Origin: a virus
Lineage: Duplodnaviria; Caudoviricetes
Length of the DNA stretch: 64,000 nt
Virus record (IMG/VR): IMGVR_UViG_3300012662_000011
Direction: 5' to 3' (one strand)
Made by a program: the position numbers and the translations under genes
The notes under the pieces: generated by a model
What the model was told of the DNA's origin: nothing
The model's database searches: none
The model's input: the letters and a program-made list of their open reading frames with translations, nothing else
Part shown: positions 1-36,019 of the stretch, piece after piece
Numbering within the stretch: position 1 is the first letter of the stretch
How the letters are laid out: each line of letters starts with the position of its first letter

Positions 1-129
1 GCCAAGAGGGCTATTCCGCCCCCGAAAAGCACGGCGATGAGAAAATACACCGCCATGCCCAGTATGTTTCGTTTCGTTGCCTTATTCATGATTTCACCAA
101 ATTAATTCCTAATTCCTCTTTCCTAATTC

Positions 130-585
130 CTAAATTAACAAAATGATGTAGGGTATAGCAAGCCCGAAGACCTCTGCATCTATCCACCGCCCCTTGTCGT
201 CTATCGGGTAGATGAGAGCGTAGATGAGAGCGAGCATTACAGGAACACCCGGCATCGTAACCAGTCCCCATAATACGCAGAATACCGCAGCGAGCATTGC
301 CGCCCACTTGTGAACCTTGCTGTCCTCGCCCTTGTAGTGAGGTGCAGCAGCGACAAAGAGCAGTGCCGCAGGAGCGAGGAAACCGAGGAACTGAAAATTT
401 TCGGGGCTCCGCTCTATCATCGGAGGCATAAGGAGAGCTGCCGACAAGCCGATGCTAAGGCTGAACTGCCATGCACCGCCCTTGTAGGCATATTCCGAGA
501 TTACCTCCTGTCTGCCGTACTTCTTAGCCATTGCAAGCAGATAGCCCGTCATGATGCAGAGGGATGCTAATGTCATCATCTCCAT
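130..585 (-). CDS. Predicted multi-pass membrane protein of unknown function
   Basis: 151 aa with several hydrophobic segments; continues the minus-strand tail operon. Confidence 0.7.
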   Translation of the reverse strand: MEMMTLASLCIMTGYLLAMAKKYGRQEVISEYAYKGGAWQFSLSIGLSAALLMPPMIERSPENFQFLGFLAPAALLFVAAAPHYKGEDSKVHKWAAMLAAVFCVLWGLVTMPGVPVMLALIYALIYPIDDKGRWIDAEVFGLAIPYIILLI

Positions 586-589
586 ATCG

Positions 590-1111
590 CTATACCTCCA
601 TCTTTAGCTGTGCTGGATAGCCTGCCGTAACGTCATAGGCGAGCACTTTGTCTACGTCTGTCATATCGCTGACTTCCGCCTTATGGCTTGCCGTAACGTT
701 AAAGCATTGAAGAGCGTACATTTCGAGGGCGGACAATAGCTGAATAGCCTTGTCGCAGTCTACCTCTAACTTCATCTCCCCGAGCCACAGGGTCGTGGTT
801 TTGTTCCCTGCCGCCTTAGCGATTGTCGTGGAGTTCATCAGTCCGACACGTGTTGCCTTGTCGAGCCATACGACTGCGCCGTTGAGGGAGAAGCCGTTAA
901 CCTTGTCGCTTGTGTCATACTGCTCAATCTCTGCTATCTTCTGTTGTTTAGCTTGCGCCAACTTCTCCTCTGCCGTGGGCACAGGTTCAACGTACTCTTC
1001 ATAGCCTGCTGCAAGCAGTTGCTCTTCCGTCGGGTTACACACTACGCATCCGTTTAGTGTTATGGTGTCGGATGCAAAGACACCGTTCTTAATCCATTGT
1101 TTGTTTGTCAT
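590..1111 (-). CDS. DUF4376-like tail-fibre-associated protein
   Basis: KLAQAKQQKIAEIEQYDTS...WLDKATRVGL...LEMYALQCFNVT pattern typical of Bacteroidetes phage proteins downstream of tail fibres. Confidence 0.6.
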   Translation of the reverse strand: MTNKQWIKNGVFASDTITLNGCVVCNPTEEQLLAAGYEEYVEPVPTAEEKLAQAKQQKIAEIEQYDTSDKVNGFSLNGAVVWLDKATRVGLMNSTTIAKAAGNKTTTLWLGEMKLEVDCDKAIQLLSALEMYALQCFNVTASHKAEVSDMTDVDKVLAYDVTAGYPAQLKMEV

Positions 1112-1114
1112 AAT

Positions 1115-1705
1115 TCATTGTTGTTTTACCATTCCTGTAAAATCGAAGAACTTCCCCGAAACTCTATCGAGTAGTCCGGTCTTTCCGTCTTCTAACCTTT
1201 TGACAGGCTGTAAATCCAGCTTTTGCCCATTACCATCGTCTATTATTAGGTGGTACAATTTAACCTCTGTCATTCTACTCCAATTATTATCTAAGTATTT
1301 ATTAATACCAATTACGAGGTCGTATTCCAAGCCGTAATCAATCCCCAGTTGCGCAAATCGACCATCATGTATAGTATTCGTACTTCGCGAAAGGCTCGTA
1401 ATATATACGTCCCAAACCGCACCATTTGATTTGGCTATTTCGATAGCCGATGTGCCCTTATTAGTATATGTTATGGCACCCGCAGGGTTCTTTCCTAATC
1501 CAAAGTATTTAGAATAAGAATCTGCCATAGTTTGGAGAAACGAACAATAATATGATGATTGTGGGGCTGAGACTTTAAACTTTATACTCATGTCTGGAGT
1601 TGTCTTTATTCCGAGTGGGACAGTTTTGCGATAGAAATCAATAAACTCCAAATATTCCAATCGTTTATACCGATTCAGTCTTAGTCTTCTCCTCATTCCT
1701 CTCAT
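1115..1705 (-). CDS. Putative receptor-binding/tail-fibre tip module B
   Basis: Arg-rich N-terminus, YKRLEYL, C-terminal LQPVKRLEDGKTGLLDRVSGKFF; paralogous to 1757-2323. Confidence 0.6.
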   Translation of the reverse strand: MRGMRRRLRLNRYKRLEYLEFIDFYRKTVPLGIKTTPDMSIKFKVSAPQSSYYCSFLQTMADSYSKYFGLGKNPAGAITYTNKGTSAIEIAKSNGAVWDVYITSLSRSTNTIHDGRFAQLGIDYGLEYDLVIGINKYLDNNWSRMTEVKLYHLIIDDGNGQKLDLQPVKRLEDGKTGLLDRVSGKFFDFTGMVKQQ

Positions 1706-1756
1706 GCCGCCCTCCTTTCTGCCATTGCTGATGTAAAGAGCGGCAGGAGTGATATT

Positions 1757-2323
1757 CTACGGCTTACCCCCCCCCGAGAACTTTGCTCCGTTCGGTGAGG
1801 TGTAGAACTTGCCGCCTACCTTGTCGTACATACCTATCATGCCATCAGATTTGCGCTTGACGGGGATTAGCTTCATTATGTATTTGCCGTTCTCCTTGAT
1901 GTTGAAATAATAGACGTTACCATAAGAATTGTAACTGTCAACGAAGACGGTTATCGGGGCATCACCTCCGATATTCATTATGCTCTCGATTTTCTTGCCT
2001 GTGTACACATCTTCAATCTGTCCGCTCCGAACTATAATGCTGTATATTCCATCTTGCAACGTAACGGGATTAGTGCCTAAGTTAATAAATCTATTATTGA
2101 TTTGGAACTGCCAATATATATCTTTCTGTGGGTAAAACTTAAAGGATTTAGATGTGCCGATAAGCTGAATGTAATCAAGGAGATAGTCCGACTTTACCTC
2201 AATTTCCTTCGATGCAGTCATATCTATCCCTAAGTTTATATACGCATTATTGCCTTTGGTTTTACTGATATACCTTAGCTTCTCATACAAGCTAAGCGAA
2301 TCTCTTCTTCTGTCCGTCCTCAT
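1757..2323 (-). CDS. Putative receptor-binding/tail-fibre tip module A, ending in a G9 tract
   Basis: Arg-rich N-terminus, YEKLRYI, C-terminal LIPVKRKSDGMIGMYDKVGGKFY; directly follows the tail fibre gene. Confidence 0.6.
   Translation of the reverse strand: MRTDRRRDSLSLYEKLRYISKTKGNNAYINLGIDMTASKEIEVKSDYLLDYIQLIGTSKSFKFYPQKDIYWQFQINNRFINLGTNPVTLQDGIYSIIVRSGQIEDVYTGKKIESIMNIGGDAPITVFVDSYNSYGNVYYFNIKENGKYIMKLIPVKRKSDGMIGMYDKVGGKFYTSPNGAKFSGGGKP
1767..1775 (-). repeat. G9 homopolymer at the 3' end of module A
   Basis: C9 on + strand; TCG GGG GGG GGT AAG CCG TAG on -. Confidence 0.9.
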
Positions 2324-2326
2324 ACG

Positions 2327-3673
2327 CTATTCCTCCGTCGTTATATCCCACGTCTGTATAAGTCCGTAGTACTTGCCGCCTGTGTATCTGATATTAAACT
2401 CTATATGCTGATTAGCGTCCACGCTCGGTGTTTCAGCCCACAACACATCAGCAGGGAACGTTACACTTGGAGCCGTTGAGCCAGTATCAAAACTACCTTG
2501 ATACTCGTTGCAGACGCTTGTGTCTGTCGGAGCGTTCAGTGTCAGTGTCAGCGTTTCGCCCACGGAAATGACATATACCTTATTGGCATCAAGAGCAACC
2601 GCATCACCGCTTGCCGCCACTTCCACGACAGGGAGTTTGACAATATCCATGTACTTGTTGACTTCGGTAGACGAAGTATCAGCCTTACTTGCAGCCGTGT
2701 TTGCGGCATCAGCAGCCGTGTTTGCCTTACTTGCAGCAGAAGTAGCGGCTTTCTCGCTTGCAGATATATCAAGTTTCTTTGTCGTGCCTTCACGGCTTGT
2801 AATGGTCAATATCTTATCATCGCCCAAAACGGCATCCACCTTCTCCGCTTCCTCGGTAGCTGTGTTGCAGTTCTTGATAGCCGTGTCCACTTCCCCGACC
2901 TTGGCGGTGAAGCTCTGCTCTCTTGTCTGTTCAGCGGAAACACGTGAGTTCTCGGCTGCAACTCGGGCATTTTCAGCCGTAACTCGCCCAATTTCTGCGG
3001 TAGAACGGGCTTCTTCTGATGCGGAACGTTGGTTCTCGGCATCCGCACGAGCCTGTTCGGCTTCGGCTCTTGCCGTTTCCGCTTCTTTCCTGTCCGTTTC
3101 GTTAGATTGACGTGATAGCTCATCGGTGTTGCGCTTGGCTTCGGCGGCAGTGCGCTGACTCTCGGCTTCTATTCTTGACTGCTCGGCAACGGCTCTTGAC
3201 TGCTCGGCAGAAACACGGCTGCTCTCAGCTTCAACACGTGAGGATTCCGCTTTGACACGTGCATCTTCAACAGGAACAATAGCCTCGCATACCTCTGTGG
3301 CTTTCTTAGCCTTGGCGGTAGCGTCATTGGCATTGGTAACGGCAGCGTTAACCGTGTCGGTAGCGGCAACGGCTTTAGATGTAGCGGAATTAGCCTTTTC
3401 CGTAGCGGCATCAGCCTTCTCGGCGGCAGTATTTGCCCTCTCCGTTGCCTTGACAGCGTCGTTAGCACCGCTGTAAGCCGCCTGTCCGTCAACGAGCACT
3501 CCCCACCATTCCGTTTCTCCGTTCGGCTCATGGTTAAGGTTGTCCTCCTGTTTGCTCCAGTAGGTAGTGTTCTTGTAGGTTACCACGTGCATCCTGCCGT
3601 AGGTAACTTCGGGGGAATATGCGCCCTTGGGAGCAAATCCCACACGTCCCAAATTGATTGTTTTCTTTTCCAT
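2327..3673 (-). CDS. Tail fibre-like coiled-coil protein with C-terminal adaptor domain
   Basis: Ala-rich and AE..R heptad repeats; beta-rich C-terminal domain; position in tail module. Confidence 0.7.
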   Translation of the reverse strand: MEKKTINLGRVGFAPKGAYSPEVTYGRMHVVTYKNTTYWSKQEDNLNHEPNGETEWWGVLVDGQAAYSGANDAVKATERANTAAEKADAATEKANSATSKAVAATDTVNAAVTNANDATAKAKKATEVCEAIVPVEDARVKAESSRVEAESSRVSAEQSRAVAEQSRIEAESQRTAAEAKRNTDELSRQSNETDRKEAETARAEAEQARADAENQRSASEEARSTAEIGRVTAENARVAAENSRVSAEQTREQSFTAKVGEVDTAIKNCNTATEEAEKVDAVLGDDKILTITSREGTTKKLDISASEKAATSAASKANTAADAANTAASKADTSSTEVNKYMDIVKLPVVEVAASGDAVALDANKVYVISVGETLTLTLNAPTDTSVCNEYQGSFDTGSTAPSVTFPADVLWAETPSVDANQHIEFNIRYTGGKYYGLIQTWDITTEE

Positions 3674-3691
3674 ATACGTATATAAGTTTAA

Positions 3692-4495
3692 TTAAACATT
3701 CATTGTCAGTTCCCCATCGTCAGATAGGGCAAATCTGTTCTCATCACCGCCCTGAATACTCACTTGCAGTGTCATATCGGCTTCGTCAACATCAAAGGTA
3801 GGATAATCCACCGTTCCCTTGCTGTAATATTCAGTCCTCACATACTCGTCTGTGGTTTCGTCCCACTTCATCCAGTAGCCATCCTCGCCAATAATATTCG
3901 GGTGGTCGGCTTGATTCTTGGCTCGTTCGGTCTGATGCTTGCACTCCTCGTTCTGTTCCTCCCTTGCAAGCTCGGCTTTCTTTCTTGCTTCCTCGGCTTC
4001 GGCACGCTGTTTTTCCGCCTCGGAAACGGAATCCACAAAGTCGGATGCAGGCTTCCGTAGCCATGCGTAGTAGTCTTCGAGCGTTCCCTTGTTACCGTCG
4101 AGCAGCCAAAGGTCGTAGGCACTCATGCCGGGGATGCCGACAAGGACGTTGCTCTCTAAGCTAACCATAAAATCCTCGAAGTCCACATCATCGTCTGTCT
4201 CCTCGCAGGAATGGGCGACAAGCGTAAAGGCTTGGTCGGCACAGATGGTTTTCTCGGGAGAGCCTGTTGTGGCATCGTTGAGGATTACGGCACGAGAGCC
4301 AGTGCTCTTCTGCATGGATGCAGGGTAGAGGAATGTTATCACGCATCCCGATATTGTGAAGTTCGTTATCTCTTGTTTCTGGTAGGCGGAACGGACGTAT
4401 AGCTTCAGCGTTCTGCCTTCAAGACTTACGGCTTCGCCGTTTGTCTTTACTTCCCACGACACTTGAATGTCGTTGCCGATTCTGATTTTTCGCAT
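3692..4495 (-). CDS. Baseplate/tail-fibre attachment protein (start re-called at 4495, MRKIRIGNDI)
   Basis: GMSAYDLWL...GTLEDY motif common in phage tail proteins; the ORF-track N-terminal extension runs through an intergenic repeat. Confidence 0.6.
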   Translation of the reverse strand: MRKIRIGNDIQVSWEVKTNGEAVSLEGRTLKLYVRSAYQKQEITNFTISGCVITFLYPASMQKSTGSRAVILNDATTGSPEKTICADQAFTLVAHSCEETDDDVDFEDFMVSLESNVLVGIPGMSAYDLWLLDGNKGTLEDYYAWLRKPASDFVDSVSEAEKQRAEAEEARKKAELAREEQNEECKHQTERAKNQADHPNIIGEDGYWMKWDETTDEYVRTEYYSKGTVDYPTFDVDEADMTLQVSIQGGDENRFALSDDGELTMNV

Positions 4496-4514
4496 GTTTG
4501 TTGATGTTTTAATT

Positions 4515-4571
4515 GTTTTGTAGGTTTTGTAAGGGGTGTAGGTGTTGTAGGTTGGGTAGGTGTTGTAAGGA
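4515..4571. repeat. Imperfect 9-nt tandem repeat (CCTACAACA-like on -), intergenic
   Basis: gtaggtttt/gtaaggggt/gtaggtgtt/gtaggttgg/gtaggtgtt/gtaagg. Confidence 0.7.
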
Positions 4572-7500
4572 TTAACCATTGTCTTTGATATGCATAGCAT
4601 AATAGTTTGTACCATCCCATACTAAAAGTATTTCCATAATCTGTCCTTTGTTGACTGTTATACTACTAACCTGTGAGCCGCTCTTGTTGTAGAGTATAGG
4701 TTCCTCTGTTGAAGCCCATGTGCCACTCGATTGTCTACCGCTAATTTTTACCGAATTGGAAGATGTAGGACTGCATATAACCATAATGCGCAAACTCCAC
4801 GCTCCTGAATTGCCAAGGAATGTAGCCACGCCTCCTCTTGCCGGAAGATAGACGTTGACAACTCCGAGGGGGCAGTCAAAAAGCCATCTGTTGCCATAAA
4901 ACTGCAAATCTACAGTACCGATTTCCAACTTTGACGATGAGATGAGAGCGAAACTTGTACCCTCAATCATTCCTCTTAGTATGCCGTGCCCTGTACCCAT
5001 GAAAGCGTAATTTTGTCCTTGCGGATTGCCGCTTGCTTCAAGCCATGCAGCTACATTATAACTACCCCACGGAGTATCATTCTTGCTATATTTTACTTTC
5101 AGCTCAGCCCCCATCAGGTAATTATTATCAAAGATAACTCCTATTTTACTGCTTAGACTCCCATCTGCACCCTGTATTGTAATATTGCTTGCTGCACCTT
5201 TTGACGAGCCCAGCCAACCTTGTGGAATGTCGTAGGTAAGTCCTTGACTACCCACAGAGAAACCTCCGAGGATAGTACCATCCGACTGCTTTTCACCGCA
5301 AAACTTACCATTGCTTATCCATGAATTTTCAGTAACCTGTATATTTTTATAAGTTCCGCTTTCAGCCGTAATGTTAGTGAACGTACCGCCCTCCGCAGTC
5401 ATGTCTGTTGATTTGATATTCTTGAACGTACCACCATTACAAACTATATCATTCGTTTCAAACACTCCGTCAGCATTTACCTTTGCGGTGGTTGTGCCTT
5501 GATTGTTTCTTACCTCAAACGTGTCAGCCGTGGCAGTAATCTTCCTGCTCCGAATATCAATCCCAGTTGCAAGCAGTTCATCAACGCTCACGCCATCCTC
5601 CGTGTAGTCGGTCATACGTCCGCCCTGTTCCAACTTCACACCGCCAATCCATACCTCACTGCCAGCGGCAAGGCGACAGGGGAGGATGCAGCGCACTGTA
5701 CCCTGTTCACGGGTGGAGAAACCGCTCTTTTGCGATGAGGGGGTGAGCATCGGCTTTGTGATGAAGAAGTAACTGCCGTAGGTGCGGAAGTAGATGCGTG
5801 CCGAAGACAACGCAGAACTTGCTTTAAAGGTGATAGAGTGCTCCGTGTAAGCAGTAGCGGATGCGTCAACCTCAACATAAAGGACACCGCTATCAGACTT
5901 CACGGACTGGTCCACTCCGTCCACACATACCGTCATTCCACTGTTGTCTATCGTGTCGAGGGATATTCCCGAAAGATAGATGCGCATGACAGAAGGGCTT
6001 TTCGACTTGAAGGTAACAGTCCACCACGAAGCCCACAGGGACGCTCCCACGGCTTGTGAAATCTCGCAGTAGCTTGCGCCCGAAGACTTGGAGATATATT
6101 GTCCGCCCCATCCGTCAGCAGCAGAAGCGATATGTCGAGTACTCCCTGTAACGTCCCAGTTTGAAGTGTAGCCCGATGCAGCATTGAAACCGGCATTATA
6201 GAAGTAGTTGCCGAAGAGCTGTTTGATGCAGTAGGCTATGCGGATGCGTTGCCAATCAGACGTGAGGGTATGAGGAAGGTAGCCGTCCTCGCCTGTTCCC
6301 ACCTGTCCGAAGTTGTCCGCCACACGCTCGCATGCTTCAGGATAGAGAAAGCTCTTGAAAGTTCCGCTACCCTTTACCCAGAACGACAAAGTATATACCT
6401 CGCCGCTGTCGGGAGCAAAGATGTTGTTCATATAGAGTACGTCAACCTCGGATGAAGAAGTGTTCTTGTAGTGCAGGGCTTGCAGCTTGCGGAAGCCAGT
6501 GTCGAGCGCACCCTCCTGAATATCGCCTACCCTCGACCATTTGCTGTCGGAGAGGACAGGCAGGAAGTTGCCGCTGATGGCAGGGTCGCTCTCGTGCAAA
6601 GACCACGGGGAGCAGACGCTGCCCTCTTCGAGCTGCGCCCAATTGAGGGTAATCAGTCCGTCCTCCTGTGGCTTCGTGTCCTTGAATTTACCCGTAGGGT
6701 GGAATGGATAAGCCTGAAAGTAATACTCCCCGGTGGAGGGTGGCGTAAAGCTGCCGTTGCCCTCCAGTTTGAACGTCAACGTTGCCGTAATGTCCGTAGT
6801 GCTGTCGATGTCGAGATTCACGGCGAACGTCCATCCAAAGTTGAAGATGAAGACACGCAGTACGCCGCCGCCGTTCTTCAGTGCAGCGTCGATATGTCCG
6901 TTGACGGAAAGAGAGTAGTACTTCCCTGCTTCGAGCGTGAACTTCCTCTGTCCTATTCCGTAGATGCGTGAAGTGTTGAAGAAATATGAACGAGGGATAA
7001 GGTTGCGCCCACGGACTGACTGTTGGTCTACCTTCAGGGAGATGCTGTCGGCGGTCTGCTTGATCTCGCTCACGCTTGTTTCCAAAGCTCCTATTTGTTC
7101 GCCGTTTTTGTCCACCTTGGTAGACAGGCCGGCTACCGTTCCCTTGATGCCATTCACGTCAGTCTGTAGTGTTGTAACACTGCCTTTTACCTGCGTAACA
7201 CCCTCGAGGGCATCCTGCGCATCGCTTTCCGCATCTTCGGCGGTCTTCTTTACATCCGTAATCTCTCCCTCAATCTTCTTGACTGCATTGGTAGTATAGT
7301 CGTTGAGATTGGTTATTCTGCCGTTTGTGTCAGACAAGTTGCTGTTGATGTCGGTAATGGCACCGCCGATGTCAGTACCTGTCGTTGTGGAAAAATCGCC
7401 TATGAACTTATTCCCCTTAGGACTAATCTGTGTCTTGACGCAATTAGTCAGCGAGAATGTCTTGATACCTCCATACTGGATGATGGCAGGAGCAAGGTCG

Positions 7501-10500
7501 CCCACGGTCTGAATCTCGATAGCGTTCTGACGTTCCTCATCAGAAACATTGCCCAGACAGCACACGGCATCGCCAGCCCGAGGAGCATCGCTGCCGTCTT
7601 CATATCCTGCACCGGGAATGAGATTGGAGAGAGTAATCCACCCGAACTTCTGACCGTCGTAGAGTACGTTGCCGTCGGCGTCCGTAATCTGCTCGCTCTC
7701 CGAAGACACGGCAGTAACCTTGCGCCAGTACCTTCTGTTGCCCACGTTCTCATACACACCCTCCTTGATGCCGAACGACTGCGAGTAGGCGAGGTCGCCC
7801 ACCTTCCACATGTTCTCCGTTGCCGTAGTGCCGTTGTCGGCAAGGAAATAGCACTTGTAGCCAGTGATTATCGAAGACACTCCCTGAGCCGTTTCATTTT
7901 TCACCTCCTCGACGTGCATCAGCGTACTGCCGGCAGGCGAGAAGATGAAGTTGCCGCCCACGTAGGAGAGCTTTCTAATCTCCAGCTCATGGAACACCGC
8001 CTTTCCCCACACTTCAAGGTCAGTCAGCGAGAGCTTGAACTTTCCGTCCTCGCGCCGCTTCATGCCGTAGCCCGACTGAGCGGCATAGTCGTAGTCGGAG
8101 GAAGCTATCTCCCTAAATACCACATCACCATCCTCGGATATGTAATATCCCTTGCCCTGTATGACTCTCAGAAAAGCATCGCCAAGCTCCGAAATGGAGT
8201 AGTTTGTGCCGAGGGAGATGCCTTTCAGGAAGGAAATTAATCCGTATGCAGTATCATCTGTGCGCTTTGATAAGTATAGTTTATCTGCAATATTCGCATT
8301 GAAAGAATTTTCACTACCTGAAACTAAAGATGTTAAGCTTCGTACCGTCTCGCCTTTAACGGAGTCTATTATCTGTTTTATGTCGGATGCTGCAACTTCA
8401 AGAGAGTTGGTTAATTCTACCTCAATAGATGCTAAAGCATTACTTTCAACCTTTACCGTGTAGTTGCTCACAAATACCTCCTTTGGTTCGGTATTGCCGT
8501 TATATCTTATTGCAAGTTTAGAGTTCTCATTAAGCTTGCTTGCAAAATCCGGATTCTCCGCAAGATAGACACGGGAGAATTTTATGGAGTAATTAAATTG
8601 ATCCTCATTATTCTCACTCATGTATTTTATAAGAGCATCATCGAGTCGCTTTTCAGCCGCGTAAACAAGCGAAGGTGGCATTTGTATTCCTGTAATGACA
8701 AACTTATCGCCTTTCTTTGGTTTAAATCCTGCTGCCGCATTTGGCATAACAATGCCGAGTGTGGACGTTTCTTTTTGTACAGCTATCCAAATCTCTTTCT
8801 CTTGCGTGTTTTGGTTCTTTGTGTCGGAAATCGACTCGTTGTTATCTAAAAAGATATAATCCCCCTTATATCCGTTTTCTGTATCTAATTTACCTGTAGC
8901 AACAAGATTTCCATTTCCATCTGTATTTAGAATATTGTAGCAATTATTTTTACCACTATCCCAATAAGACTCAATAGGGAATACGCAAGCCGGGCAACCC
9001 TGACAGTCAATCATGTTTATCTTTGCATTATCACTTGCTAATGCTTGCTTAAACAGATTAAAACCAAACTCACCATCAAAAATATGCAATTTGATATAGA
9101 AGTATTGATGTAAGAATGTTTCTCCATCACTTCCTTTTACATCTGAATCATTGCTATCAAAAGCTACATCTGTAATTTCCCCAAATAGCTCACCTTTGGA
9201 ATTTTTTACTCCGTTTATTGTAGGCTTTATATCATCGTAAGATACCGACCCTTGATGTGGGAAGCCTTGTTTGTATAGATTTTTAAACGTATAATAGTTA
9301 TCAGTGTCGGGGATTTTGTATGTATCGTCTTTTGCGTAGTAAAATCTTTCCGCACCATTGGATGAACGATACACCGATGGCATGAGGTTTGAAACGGGGT
9401 CGATCCATTTGCGACCCGTGATGTCTATCTTTATGGCACTCGTATCTGAACCCTCAACAAATCCTTCGCTATACGTGTAGTATGGAATTTTAAATGTTGT
9501 TAGTTCTGAATCTATCTCCCCATCGTTGTAGAATGAAAAATCGTTTATGGCTGCGGTTTTTTGAGCTTCATCTGTATTAAGGGTAATACCCGATGCTGAA
9601 TAATCAGCCACTTTATCGTTGTCTTTTACCCAATAATAATCCTCCTTATGGTTACTATAATCTAATTCTATATAGCCTCCAGCTTGAGCGTCGATAATAC
9701 CTTTTTCAAAAGGTATCGTTTTATCCGTTTCGTTATAAACGTTAATTAAATCTACAAATGTAAAAATATAGATGTCAGAAGTTAAACACTCATATCTCCC
9801 GTTAAAATAGATGTTTTTAAATTCTTCTGATTTGGTACGAAGGTGAAAATCAAGCTTTTCGGATTGACTGAAAACATTTATCCCGTCTGCCGTTATATAT
9901 GTGATATTGATTGAGGGTTCTTTTATCACTGTGCCCACCTCGCAATTTATTGCTATTTCGAACGAATAAGAAAAGGTATAAGGTTTGGTTGATGGAGCAA
10001 ATTGTGTTGGATTAAGCATAAACCTAAATGGGAATCTGTCATTGGAGATTACAGCTTTTCGACTCATCCTCTTTACTAATGTATATTTGCCTGTATAGTC
10101 TGCTCCAAACGCCTTTTGTAACTTCGCAAGGGAAATGTCTACAAGAGGGTTATCAATATTGGTTGAGTTAAATATCGCGATACCGTACTCATCGTTGTTC
10201 GGATAATAATAAGGAATGTTATCTGTCGAGCCGTACCCGGTTATCATATCTACAAGTTTGGTGTTCGCATTTTCCTTACCAATAGATAACAATTCTTTAT
10301 CTCTACCGTATTCAAGTATGTGTTCTGTCAAATCATATTGAACCTTACCTACATGGCAGACATTTCCAACCCAATAATAATCAAGCTCATATTCTGTGTT
10401 GATAAGTTGTAAAACATTTGTGAGGTATTGATTTTCAAAAGAAATTTCTTTTACTTCATCTGTACCATAACCCTCATCGACAACAAGATAGTAACCCTTT

Positions 10501-27106: not shown

Positions 27107-27145
27107 AAACGAGGTACAAGGTTTTACATCTTATACCTCGTTTTT
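27107..27145. terminator. Bidirectional intrinsic terminator between convergent operons
   Basis: AAACGAGGTAcAAG...CTTaTACCTCGTTTT inverted repeat with flanking A/T runs. Confidence 0.75.
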
Positions 27146-27289
27146 GCTATATCCTGTATACAGTGATAATATAACGCACATTCCGTTAGCTGCAATCCCC
27201 TTGTGCATTGTAGCCAATACCGCTCTCGCTTTGTCGTTTGGAGATGTAATATTGCCCCAAATCTTCTCAATATCTTTATCTGTCCTCAT
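27131..27289 (-). CDS. TRD-like mini-ORF m11 (52 aa, intact, no tract)
   Basis: Hand translation: MRTDKDIEKIWGNITSPNDKARAVLATMHKGIAANGMCVILSLYTGYSKNEV. Confidence 0.75.
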   Translation of the reverse strand: MRTDKDIEKIWGNITSPNDKARAVLATMHKGIAANGMCVILSLYTGYSKNEV

Positions 27290-27420
27290 AGCGTTCAAAA
27301 ATATATGTTACACCATTATTGCCACCACCCTTATACATGGTAGCACAAAGGGTAACGGATTTCTCTCGCCCCCCCCCGAAGCTGCTTGTGGATTAAATCC
27401 AATTGATGCTTTGCTGTCAT
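27276..27420 (-). pseudogene. TRD-like mini-ORF m10, frameshifted at G9 (27369-27377); in frame at G8
   Basis: With G8: MTAKHQLDLIHKQLRGGREKSVTLCATMYKGGGNNGVTYIFERYEDR. Confidence 0.75.
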
Positions 27421-27572
27421 TGCTCTCTTAATTCTAAAACAAACGGACGTAGGTCAAAACCACCCACTCCATGAGAATAATAAGCGGTAAGAGTTCCGCA
27501 TTTCTCTCGGGGGGGGGTATGTATAACTATTGACTTATATAAAGTCGGATAAAAAACTAATCTATGTTGCAT
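27417..27572 (-). CDS. TRD-like mini-ORF m9 (51 aa), in frame at C9 (27509-27517)
   Basis: MQHRLVFYPTLYKSIVIHTPPREKCGTLTAYYSHGVGGFDLRPFVLELREQ. Confidence 0.75.
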   Translation of the reverse strand: MQHRLVFYPTLYKSIVIHTPPREKCGTLTAYYSHGVGGFDLRPFVLELREQ

Positions 27573-27716
27573 AAACTTCTAATATGTAAGGTCTGTAACC
27601 TCTTGTATCATATCCTTTATGGTATGACGCTTCTATACCCCCCCGATAGAATATTCCACCGAAGAGAAAGTCCTTAGTCCTCCGTTAACCTGAGGATGTA
27701 CTTGGTATTTTCTCAT
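27562..27716 (-). pseudogene. TRD-like mini-ORF m8, frameshifted at G7 (27638-27644); in frame at G8
   Basis: With G8: MRKYQVHPQVNGGLRTFSSVEYSIGGGIEASYHKGYDTRGYRPYILEVYAT. Confidence 0.75.
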
Positions 27717-28172: not shown

Positions 28173-28314
28173 AAAGTATTATTAATGTATTATCCTTTGC
28201 CACAGAAGTAAGGAAACTTGACTTTTGCCCTCTAAGCTCCAAACTTTGGCGGTGTGAAGAATTATGCCACTCGCCTTCTGAACGTCCTCTAACGGCTGCT
28301 GTATTAACTCTCAT
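28138..28314 (-). CDS. TRD-like mini-ORF m4 (58 aa, intact, no tract)
   Basis: MRVNTAAVRGRSEGEWHNSSHRQSLELRGQKSSFLTSVAKDNTLIILYDKTDTIKRQP. Confidence 0.8.
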   Translation of the reverse strand: MRVNTAAVRGRSEGEWHNSSHRQSLELRGQKSSFLTSVAKDNTLIILYDKTDTIKRQP

Positions 28315-28436
28315 AAAGTTTCAATAAACAATCGCTTTGCGAATTATTCCCCGCTCCGTGAGAACCCACACATAAAGCTGTTGCCTTATTAGATTTTGCA
28401 AGCCCCCCCCCTACGGCTAATCTTAATTTCTCTCAT
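28304..28436 (-). pseudogene. TRD-like mini-ORF m3, frameshifted at G9 (28403-28411); in frame at G8
   Basis: With G8: MREIKISRRGGLAKSNKATALCVGSHGAGNNSQSDCLLKLYES. Confidence 0.75.
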
Positions 28437-28605
28437 AAACTCTGATTATATACCCCCCCCGATGCGCTGTCTGTAAACACTGATGCTTTACAGAAACAAA
28501 TGATATTGTACCAAATTCCGTAAGACTTCCTTTATGTCCGTCATTTTGATAGGGTCTTAATCCGTCTTCGGTAACTGATACACCATGTAATCTACATCCT
28601 TTCAT
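28423..28605 (-). CDS. TRD-like mini-ORF m2 (60 aa), in frame at G8 (28453-28460)
   Basis: ORF track; ...KHQCLQTAHRGGYIIRVYERN. Confidence 0.75.
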   Translation of the reverse strand: MKGCRLHGVSVTEDGLRPYQNDGHKGSLTEFGTISFVSVKHQCLQTAHRGGYIIRVYERN

Positions 28606-28739
28606 ATATTTCTATTACTCCTGAATGTTGCCTGTGCCCCGGAACATACCACCAATCCTTATATCTCGTGTTCAAGGCTGCTGATTTTTCAGTGGGGGGG
28701 GGTAATACCATTACCCATATTAAACGCTTGCATCCTCAT
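28592..28739 (-). pseudogene. TRD-like mini-ORF m1, frameshifted at C9 (28694-28702); in frame at C8
   Basis: With C8: MRMQAFNMGNGITPPTEKSAALNTRYKDWWYVPGHRQHSGVIEIYERM; ATG overlaps the end of the methyltransferase gene. Confidence 0.75.
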
Positions 28740-29943
28740 ATATTTCGCGAAGTCTTTGCTGTTCCTGTTTATACCCAAACTCTGCCAGTTCATGTTTTTC
28801 ATCGTTAGACAGGTATGAGTATTCATCTGAACTATTCAACCAATCAACGACCTCATCCATACTAACTTGCGGCTCTAAAAGATAGGCTTTAAGCTTCTTT
28901 TTATCTGTCCGTTCCATAAGTTGCCGAACGGTAGCATCTTTCAGATAATATTTTTCATCCGCCTTTTCTTGCAGTATATCCTTGATTACAAGCCCTCTGT
29001 CTTCTGGTTGTGGAATATCCGTTTGCAATGGGGGCAAGGCGAATGGATCCTTGTCGTCATAGAACAAAGAGTCTCCCGCAACTTCCTTTGTCCTTATGTT
29101 AGTCCAATATATACGTCTTCTGTTTTGTGCCGATACCAAAGCGGAATTGATATGAACGCCACGCACACCGATAGCATGGGAAAGACACCTTTCCCACTTC
29201 TCCAACATCTTGACGTTTTCAAGAAAGAAATAAATATCCGGATTATACTTAAGCAATTCTGTAAGTATTCGCATGTATTCCCAAAATAGATAAGATTGCC
29301 CTTCAAACTGAAAGTTCTGTGATTTTAATTCAAGGTATCTATCAAGGGTGTAAATCTCTTCACCTTTCTTTGTACTCATACCTTTCATCTTGCCAGAAAA
29401 CGAAAAGTTGGTACACGGTGAACCTCCCATAATTATATCGGGAACACCATATTTTTCTACAATTTCATCAACATTCAACTCCGTTACACTACCTAACTGG
29501 ATAGTGTCAGGAAAGTTATGTTGAGTATTGGCTATTGCGTATTTATCAATTTCAGATGCAAGGTAGGTATCTATTTTTGCACCTACGCCACGGAGAGACA
29601 TTTGCCCCCCCGAAATTCCGTCAAACAATGACAAAACCTTAATACCATTCAGCTTTTCTTTTGGTATAAAGCTGAATATATGCTTAATTGTTTCAATGTT
29701 CCATCCGTTCCCCAAACCTTTATATTGCTGCGTTTCAGATGTAACAAATTCATAATCATGCGGTAATGTTTGCAATTCTGCACACTCTTGTGGAGTCAGT
29801 CTACGTATTGCAGCAACGTATTTTATTCCGTTAACCTCGAAGTCTACACCCTGTTTATTATCCGGCATAGTCTTCTTAAAATCCTCAAACTGCTTCTCTT
29901 TTACCTTGCAGTAAACCTTTCTTGCTATTTCTTCTTTTCCCAT
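28720..29943 (-). CDS. Circularly permuted C5-cytosine DNA methyltransferase with no obvious TRD
   Basis: Motif order IX (RRLTPQECAELQ), X (QYKGLGNGW), I (LSLFDGISG), IV (GGSPC), VI (FFLENV), VIII (AQNRRRIYW). Confidence 0.92.
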   Translation of the reverse strand: MGKEEIARKVYCKVKEKQFEDFKKTMPDNKQGVDFEVNGIKYVAAIRRLTPQECAELQTLPHDYEFVTSETQQYKGLGNGWNIETIKHIFSFIPKEKLNGIKVLSLFDGISGGQMSLRGVGAKIDTYLASEIDKYAIANTQHNFPDTIQLGSVTELNVDEIVEKYGVPDIIMGGSPCTNFSFSGKMKGMSTKKGEEIYTLDRYLELKSQNFQFEGQSYLFWEYMRILTELLKYNPDIYFFLENVKMLEKWERCLSHAIGVRGVHINSALVSAQNRRRIYWTNIRTKEVAGDSLFYDDKDPFALPPLQTDIPQPEDRGLVIKDILQEKADEKYYLKDATVRQLMERTDKKKLKAYLLEPQVSMDEVVDWLNSSDEYSYLSNDEKHELAEFGYKQEQQRLREIYEDASV

Positions 29944-35141: not shown

Positions 35142-36019
35142 GTTGCAATCCAAACAACAACAAAACATAATACTATACACTATATATATAATTATATTAA
35201 TTTAACAATTATCGCATCTATATATATTAAAATATTTAACAATGTACGCATATAGATAAGGGTTATCATATATCTAACCATATATTATCATATAGTTCAA
35301 TATATGTGTAGACAATAGGAACAATGATAATATATGAACATATATAACCCTTATAGAAGTAAAGACATACGTGCCCTCCGGATAAAAAAACACAGCAAAA
35401 GCGAAATAAAGCGTTCTAAGACGTTTTTACACGGCAAGACCTATAATTTACCACAGAAAACATAAAACTCGCTTAAAACGACTTAAAAGTGGATTAAAAC
35501 GAATCTAACGACACGTATGTACTTGCTGAAAATAAAAAAAATAAAAAAAATTTGGAAAAGAGCGGGTTCGGGTGCTGCTCCCTGGTCGCCGGGGGGGGTG
35601 GATGCAAACTTTATACGGTGCATAATATAGGACTATAGAGCATATAATAGCGAGCATATTGCAAACGAAACGAACGTTACCCACGGAATATAAGCATATC
35701 AAACGCAATATAAGCGCATATAACAGCATAATATACTGTGCACACTACATTACACGTACAAAGACCTCAAAAGACGTTACACACACTTATATTGCATGCG
35801 TATATGTACTAAGGCGAATTGCATACTATCTTACATATAACTTATCTCCAGTATACTGCAGCACTCCAATTTTGCGGTGGGAGATATTTGCGCTTACATT
35901 ACGCGACTGCAATTACATGCATATATATTATATATAATAGGTGTAAACACACGTTTTTCGCTATATTTGTCAAGATTTTAAAAAACATACGCTATTTTAC
36001 AAAGATTTTAATCAAAACT

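Follow-up and report, generated by a model that had tools for sequence, protein, structure and literature searches.

A circularly permuted phage C5-cytosine methyltransferase with an empty target recognition site, and flanking mini-open reading frames that may supply its recognition domains

Organization of the methyltransferase locus

The sequence analyzed here, referred to as the window, is a 64,000-nucleotide stretch of viral DNA (Duplodnaviria; Caudoviricetes) recorded in IMG/VR as IMGVR_UViG_3300012662_000011. Its minus strand carries an operon whose central gene, hereafter the core, encodes a C5-cytosine DNA methyltransferase (MTase) that has its conserved motifs in circularly permuted order and that lacks a target recognition domain (TRD). 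The core gene is part of a phage or prophage region and converges with a gene for a tape-measure-like protein of 2180 amino acids (aa). It is accompanied by a set of mini-open reading frames (mini-ORFs), here called modules: eleven are found downstream on the same strand (positions 28739 to 27131, 130-200 nt each) and one, m0, overlaps the core start codon (Table 1). One upstream and eleven downstream mini-proteins are apparently encoded on one transcript, and scans within the operon detected no excess of consensus promoters and no terminator.

Table 1. Features of the methyltransferase operon, in window coordinates
Feature	Position	Strand	Details
Catalytic core gene, circularly permuted C5-cytosine DNA MTase	28720..29943	(-)	407 aa, order IX-X-I..VIII, without TRD; from the ORF, PF00145, swapped alignment segments and AlphaFold2 model
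Family-specific basic N-terminal helix, aa 1-30	29854..29943	(-)	Helix 3-25 at pLDDT 87-93; net charge +3; missing from canonical relatives
Beta-hairpin, aa 31-46, directly before motif IX; candidate docking segment of the first-pass annotation	29806..29853	(-)	Strands 33-37 and 40-44
Motifs IX and X, aa 47-95	29659..29805	(-)	65% identity to L042 376-427
Motifs I-VIII, aa 96-330, with Pro-Cys (IV), ENV (VI), QxRxR (VIII)	28954..29658	(-)	52% identity to L042 1-219; invariant columns
Post-VIII linker and family-specific acidic four-helix tail, aa 331-407	28723..28953	(-)	Helices at pLDDT ~92; net charge -6; C-terminus Ile-Tyr-Glu with next ATG embedded
G7 run in motif I of core gene, likely on/off switch of the enzyme	29605..29611	(-)	Length varies between contigs
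TRD module m0, upstream, overlapping core start codon	29925..30125	(-)	TGA at codon 15, then ATG; 40% identity to TRD region of canonical L028, E 5e-5
TRD module m1	28592..28739	(-)	Out of frame from junction ATG at C9 run (28694-28702); intact orthologues in L002, L005, L006
TRD module m2, 60 aa	28423..28605	(-)	In frame; G8 run near end
TRD module m3	28304..28436	(-)	Frameshifted at G9 run (28403-28411)
TRD module m4, 58 aa	28138..28314	(-)	Alignment A4: 52-74% identity to window copy across 10 other loci
TRD module m5, 54 aa	28008..28172	(-)	G7 run in frame
TRD module m6, 66 aa	27827..28027	(-)	Paralogue of m0
TRD module m7, 53 aa	27685..27846	(-)	A8 run
TRD module m8	27562..27716	(-)	Frameshifted at G7 run (27638-27644); intact orthologues in L004, L006
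TRD module m9, 51 aa	27417..27572	(-)	C9 run in frame; ATGA overlap with m10
TRD module m10	27276..27420	(-)	Frameshifted at G9 run (27369-27377); intact orthologue in L006
TRD module m11, 52 aa, last of array	27131..27289	(-)	56% identity to L079 334-364, last TRD before motif IX, E 2e-7

Permutation of the core and its vacant TRD site

The core ORF matches Pfam family PF00145 in three stretches (131 bits against a cutoff of 22; E 8e-38), and its translation contains the C5 MTase motifs I (FxGxG), IV (Pro-Cys), VI (ENV), VIII (QxRxR), IX, and X, all of which are invariant in an alignment of 59 sequences. When the core was compared by BLASTP with an enzyme of canonical motif order from a viral contig (L042, 427 aa), two high-scoring segment pairs were recovered in swapped order. 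The first joins core residues 101-346 to L042 residues 1-219 (52% identity, E 3e-85) and the second joins core residues 46-96 to L042 residues 376-427 (65% identity, E 3e-18). The intervening 156 residues of L042 (220-375), which comprise its tandem TRDs, have no counterpart in the core by BLASTP, and core residues 1-45 and 347-407 correspond to nothing in L042. The swapped segments together with the absent 156-residue block indicate that the permutation and the vacant site are real. Motifs IX and X stand ahead of motifs I-VIII, the chain breaks at both borders of the TRD block, and the TRD site is empty, much as a first-pass annotation made from the sequence had read the motif order and placed the break at the usual TRD position.

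The core shares with M.BssHII the placement of IX-X on the N-terminal side of I-VIII and a breakpoint in the variable region. Both the comparison with L042 and the structural model described below lack a TRD between motifs VIII and IX of one chain. Nor does the window hold a TRD in cis at the new N-terminus, as enzymes termed Type H do; m0 has an ORF of its own, which is interrupted and lies in another frame. A series of tandem TRDs in one polypeptide, the arrangement of the SPR type, is likewise absent from the window, where the modules are overlapping ORFs in rotating frames. A division into I-VIII and TRD-IX-X polypeptides of the M.AquI type is not found either, IX-X and I-VIII being joined in the core.

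An AlphaFold2 model of the core, built from the 59-sequence alignment (mean predicted local distance difference test score (pLDDT) 87.6; predicted template modeling score 0.82), lays out a helix at residues 3-25, a hairpin (33-37/40-44) that runs into motif IX, the catalytic fold, the linker that usually follows motif VIII, and four tail helices (336-345, 348-355, 362-371, and 380-406). At neither end of the core does the model contain a beta-rich, TRD-like segment. This agrees with the first-pass annotation, which had seen no such segment and had named folding of the C-terminal ~70 aa as a DNA-contacting TRD as the outcome that would overturn its reading; the tail is helical in the model. Its description of a short acidic helical tail holds as to charge and fold, residues 348-407 having a net charge of -6 and a pI of 4.6. 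It does not hold as to "short", for the tail amounts to ~60 conserved, family-specific residues, confidently modeled and with K350, P358, and Q359 invariant. The mini-ORF products are basic and the core is acidic overall, with an acidic catalytic part, an acidic tail, and a basic N-terminal helix.

Foldseek and VIA-align matches to the model (DNMT3A/B, DRM2, M.HhaI, and M.MpeI) cover only residues ~47-330. The terminal helices had no match in either search, which is not taken as evidence for a new fold, and a protein-atlas look-up with the tail returned unnamed, low-score clusters only. A vestigial TRD in the tail was considered when the mini-ORFs aligned against it upon being added to the core alignment, and it was rejected because the model makes this stretch helical. 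Both ends of the core that border the vacant TRD site carry family-specific secondary structure predicted with confidence. Segment 31-46, which had been put forward as the docking site for a C-terminal strand of the peptides, is a closed, self-contained hairpin in the model (G32 invariant, E34 and G39 at least 90% conserved in the 59-sequence alignment). Its first strand lines up by eye with the last strand of the final cis TRD in canonical relatives. Given this closure and this correspondence, the C-terminal strand of a free TRD would have to extend the sheet or bind the helices.

Modules as homologues of cis TRDs

Four of the modules (m0, m4, m6, and m11) align with TRD regions of canonical-order relatives (L024-L075 and L079). 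These relatives have ~50-57% core identity, are 342-470 aa long, and carry one to four tandem cis TRDs. A search of 1.84 billion representative sequences with an m4-family profile matched 120 clusters, 77 of which are stand-alone proteins shorter than 100 aa. The long matches that were checked are PF00145 enzymes in which the match falls between motifs VIII and IX, as in P0212 (327 aa, the size of a monospecific enzyme; match at 225-265), and other matches are TRD-IX-X proteins of 139-282 aa. Alignments and profile matches thus identify the mini-ORFs as homologues of the cis TRDs of ordinary MTases. A PDB sequence search with the canonical L079 enzyme aligned its catalytic motifs only and not its TRDs.

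The modules are joined by a characteristic junction. Each module starts at an ATG that lies within the terminal Tyr-Glu (or His-Glu) codons of the unit before it, and the core tail ends in the same way, with the consequence that the frame rotates by +1 each time. Across the permuted family, the next ATG lies inside a Tyr (68) or His (5) codon in 73 modules, and Phe or Arg takes the place of the junction Tyr only where there is no overlapping ATG, chiefly in the last module of an array.

Conservation across the permuted family

Relatives were collected from 76 viral and 5 genomic loci, 26 of which, the window included, form the permuted family (63-92% core identity). The closest genomic relative (92% identity) is encoded in a Prevotella metagenome-assembled genome (MAG). 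Whether permuted homologues are consistently flanked by mini-ORF arrays had been posed as a check on the first-pass annotation, and in all 26 loci a TRD-less core was found together with a conserved array of TRD-homologous mini-ORFs, the combination expected of TRDs that act in trans. Downstream of the core the arrays hold 3-11 module-like intervals, and upstream of it 0-6; their order is broadly collinear between loci, with gains and losses. Mini-ORFs in these arrays are 45-70 aa long and fall into at least 13 module families. In ten module families the median ratio of nonsynonymous to synonymous substitution (dN/dS) is 0.03-0.33, indicating purifying selection. Members of the m4 family retain the start Met, vary at residues 2-6, and share 18 invariant columns. 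G/C runs are missing from the arrays of L006 and L019, in which most ORFs are intact and overlap; the m0 orthologue in L006 is among those intact (67 aa).

In an Oscillospiraceae MAG (L078:3400-4000 and 5200-5810), whose host phylum differs from that of the Prevotella relatives, the array is rotated, with m0/m6, m10/m11, and m13 types upstream of the core and five modules downstream. In a clade with an N-terminal fused TRD, the array includes a 66-aa ORF that is not TRD-like (L009:5330-5530) and that has two Cys-x-x-Cys pairs resembling a zinc ribbon.

Homopolymer runs within the operon

Eight of the ten G/C runs of at least 7 nt in the 64-kb window lie within 2.3 kb, between 27369 and 29611, seven of them in modules and one in core motif I. 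Comparison between contigs shows orthologous runs of different length set in identical flanks. The run in the core gene, for example, is G7 and in frame here, G8 in L077, G6 in L001 and L003, and G7 in L018, all with identical flanks; the core reading frames of L077 and L018 are broken. Judging from these comparisons, the G7 run is likely to be an on/off switch of the enzyme itself. Since frame matters only in translated sequence, frame-switching runs also argue that the modules are translated. The two remaining runs of the window (C9 at 1767-1775 and G8 at 35591-35598) are outside the MTase operon.

Free TRDs in an unpermuted lineage and probable origin of the permutation

A C5 MTase operon of a different lineage and of canonical, unpermuted order was found on a 76-kb contig (L084:2006-5420) and also in L085, L082, and L086. 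In operons of this type, motifs I-VIII are encoded by an alpha gene (276 aa), which is followed by ~11 free TRD mini-ORFs and by a beta gene for TRD-IX-X (139 aa), the division into alpha and beta genes being present in L084 and L085. The mini-ORFs mostly end in a hydrophobic residue followed by Tyr-Glu and a stop codon, with the next ATG overlapping; in L084 an ATG is present at every junction. The first-pass annotation had supposed that permutation allowed the TRDs to become free peptides. The occurrence of ~11 free TRD ORFs in the unpermuted L084/L085/L082 lineage contradicts the causal part of this proposal, indicating that permutation is not what frees TRDs. The other part, that the TRDs are free peptides, is retained below as the best reading on comparative evidence (TRD homology, arrays, and selection).

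From the arrangement of these genes, the permuted core most likely arose by fusion of a IX-X part to a I-VIII part (a duplication-fusion in beta-alpha order) within an operon whose TRDs were modular or already free. Such an origin fits the duplication-fusion model quoted in PMC5944983 and the presence of modules on both sides of the core. The evolutionary account is revised accordingly, in that permutation looks like a secondary fusion of enzyme halves rather than the event that freed the TRDs.

A second C5 MTase gene (275 aa, with a very short variable region) overlaps the canonical multispecific MTase gene by 4 nt in L042 (5281-6108) and occupies the same position in L024-L074. Tandem MTase genes of this kind are an arrangement from which permutation by fusion could arise. 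Derivation of the I-VIII half of the core from the second of these genes was rejected, with 34% identity against 52% to the first gene. The L084 operon is flanked by genes resembling HNH/NUMOD4 homing endonucleases. At L089:638-2383, a C5 MTase of 581 aa with an intein (Hint_2, Intein_splicing) adjoins a 52-aa mini-ORF and a TRD-IX-X beta gene.

Comparison with known methyltransferase systems

C5 MTases are textbook monomeric enzymes in which specificity resides in one built-in domain. A well-known variation is provided by the Bacillus phage enzymes M.SPRI, M.Phi3TI, M.Rho11sI, and M.H2I, which reportedly (work attributed to Wilke 1988, Walter 1992, and Trautner 1996, titles cited by PMC8936443 and PMC7544214) combine one core with several short TRD modules, each conferring one specificity. 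The canonical relatives L024-L075 and L079 are of the same kind. However, the TRDs of the Bacillus phage enzymes are contiguous within one polypeptide, between motifs VIII and IX, whereas the window modules each have their own ORF, start, and stop and are located on both sides of the core. A further multispecific phage C5 MTase, M.(phi)BssHII, is said, on the strength of a title (Sethmann 1999, cited by PMC8936443), to have TRDs at separated places in its chain. It shows that the position of TRDs is plastic, although its TRDs are still covalently held in one protein, unlike the window modules.

Natural permuted C5 MTases are all cut in the variable region and mostly carry the TRD at the new N-terminus (PMC5944983), in agreement with the statement of the first-pass annotation that they keep their TRD in cis. 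Among the relatives found here, P0010, P0023, and P0046 share the order TRD-IX-X-I..VIII with the Type H enzymes M.BssHII, M.Alw26I, M2.Eco31I, M.Esp3I, and M2.BsaI (PMC5944983). Type H enzymes are components of Type II restriction-modification systems and retain one TRD within the chain; in the window enzyme, by contrast, the TRD block is cut at both ends, the ends are capped by helices, and ~12 TRD ORFs are separate. Active C5 MTases formed from separate polypeptides cut in the variable region are also known, both in M.AquI (alpha and beta) and in artificially bisected enzymes (PMC5944983). The alpha (I-VIII) and beta (TRD-IX-X) genes of L084 and L085 resemble M.AquI. Nevertheless, M.AquI comprises two pieces with one specificity, whereas the window and L084 have arrays of TRDs cut free at both ends.

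In Type I systems, the specificity subunit HsdS (~400 aa) carries two TRDs and serves an N6-adenine enzyme class. HsdS and phasevarions resemble the system proposed here in that a separately encoded specificity subunit programs a catalytic subunit and repeat tracts give random on/off switching; enzyme class, fold, and subunit size are all different. To our knowledge, there are no known arrays of specificity subunits of 50 aa, and a literature search found no description of free TRD arrays or of TRDs as separate ORFs in the library searched. Set against these precedents, the window system can be classed among the multispecific phage C5 MTases, from which it differs by a new subunit architecture.

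Proposed mechanism and alternative explanations

The reading that best accommodates these observations, and that is probably correct, is that free TRD peptides act in trans on a TRD-less catalytic core. Under this model, the core would be the catalytic subunit of a modular, multispecific phage C5-cytosine MTase, both ends of which are situated at the vacant TRD site, and DNA recognition would be supplied by the basic TRD mini-proteins of 45-70 residues. The mini-ORFs would be translated, and the overlap of each ATG with the preceding Tyr-Glu end suggests coupling by termination and reinitiation. The mini-proteins would then assemble non-covalently with the core, possibly on its terminal helices or hairpin, and each TRD-core pair would methylate its own target, like the tandem cis TRDs of multispecific phage enzymes. 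The G/C runs in the core gene and the modules would switch them on and off. A broader proposal, plausible on balance and held less firmly, is that free specificity subunits evolved in at least two phage C5 MTase lineages (the permuted core and the alpha/beta split). In it, one core would be served by a dozen interchangeable, separately translated TRD mini-proteins of 45-70 residues, phase-variable in this clade, with the terminal helices and the hairpin forming a universal docking socket.

Several observations weigh against trans-acting TRDs. Within the window, runs put four of the eleven downstream modules (m1, m3, m8, and m10) out of frame, a nonsense codon interrupts m0, and scans detected no Shine-Dalgarno motif before module starts. 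Pfam searches with ten mini-ORFs and a PDB sequence search with m6 gave nothing meaningful and did not confirm a suspected likeness of m6 to the TRD of M.HhaI. A cis TRD is present at the core N-terminus in 15 of the 120 best relatives (446-478 aa; for example P0010, P0023, and P0046), in the order TRD-IX-X-I..VIII, with free downstream modules still present. In these fused relatives the N-terminal helix joins the cis TRD to the hairpin, and in P0010 and P0023 the TRD joined in frame to the core is m0. The open TRD site is consequently no fixed property of the family. Folding of the natural fusion P0023 (477 aa) gave TRD residues 1-65 with pLDDT <50 and a falsely helical structure. When permuted M.MpeI and M.SssI were divided into engineered large-domain and small-domain fragments, these did not complement each other (PMC5944983). 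Lastly, the support for core binding by a TRD cut free at both ends is comparative rather than experimental or structural.

Among the alternatives, the one that survives best, albeit as an unlikely one, is that the core is active alone, with relaxed specificity or with specificity from its own loops or terminal helices, and that the mini-proteins are modulators or have another role, such as that of DNA-binding peptides. The closest solved folds, DNMT3A/B, do have very small TRDs, and the tail and N-terminal helix of the core are conserved. Yet the tail, being helical and of net charge -6, does not resemble a surface that reads DNA, the mini-ORFs have as homologues genuine cis TRDs that lie between motifs VIII and IX, and canonical relatives that are 52% identical in the core need one to four cis TRDs.

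Slightly less probable still is a role for the downstream modules as silent donor cassettes that are recombined at the junctions into an expression site at the m0 position, as in pilin-type antigenic variation. A short conserved sequence is common to the junctions, 15 of the 120 best relatives have an in-frame TRD fusion at precisely the m0 position, and module content and order differ between phages, to the point that the L078 array is rotated around the core. Silent cassettes, however, need neither start codons, stop codons, nor frame-switching runs, and all three are conserved. Moreover, only three module types occupy the upstream site beside the core (m0/m6 in one clade and m13 in the other), and among the window ORFs no recombinase gene adjoins the operon.

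It is more doubtful again that the core and TRDs are made as one multispecific polypeptide, extended at its C-terminus, through recoding at the Tyr-Glu junctions (+1 frameshifting or hopping). Each next module is indeed in the +1 frame, and in the L084 lineage a stop codon directly follows the Glu codon. But an ATG is found at every junction of L084, as it is at 73 junctions of the permuted family, and frameshifting has no need of it. The junction sequence gives tRNA-Tyr and tRNA-Glu no slippery site on which to re-pair, the ribosome would have to shift eleven times in succession, and none of the 120 best relatives has an in-frame C-terminal fusion; specifically, no TRD is fused after the tail in any of them.

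That the operon is the functionless, decaying wreck of a cis multispecific MTase gene, or an assembly with homopolymer errors, is equally improbable: G/C runs shift the frame of four modules, m0 is interrupted by a stop codon, and run lengths differ between assemblies, but the same layout recurs in 26 loci at 63-92% core identity (some mostly intact and without runs), the modules are under purifying selection, stop codons are always placed immediately behind the Tyr-Glu end, 2.3 kb contain eight of the ten G/C runs of at least 7 nt in the 64 kb, and a second lineage (L084) has the same design. Each of these alternatives leaves unexplained at least one of the following: the conserved starts and stops, the frame switches within modules, the TRD homology, and the recurrence in two lineages.

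Should trans-acting TRDs be confirmed, the mini-proteins would be smaller than any sequence-reading subunit known so far from a DNA-modifying enzyme, and ~50 residues would be enough both to recognize a DNA site and to program a catalytic core on another chain. This would give temperate gut phages of Prevotella and relatives a means of resisting many restriction systems cheaply in terms of coding space and with stochastic variation, and it would offer a plug-in scaffold for targeted writing of 5-methylcytosine.

Additional observations on neighboring sequences

In L075, a TnpB-like ORF of the IS200/IS605 type, recognized by eye (5576-6748, 390 aa), splits the second MTase gene in two. Downstream of the canonical MTase of Prevotella sp. 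oral taxon 376 (L079:5275-7387) are genes for proteins with long Gly/Ser-rich tandem repeats, and the MTase locus occurs twice in this genome (L079 and L080). Finally, positions 1-8000 of the window have a GC content of 47-53%, compared with 32-44% elsewhere in the window, and may represent host flank or a different module of the element.

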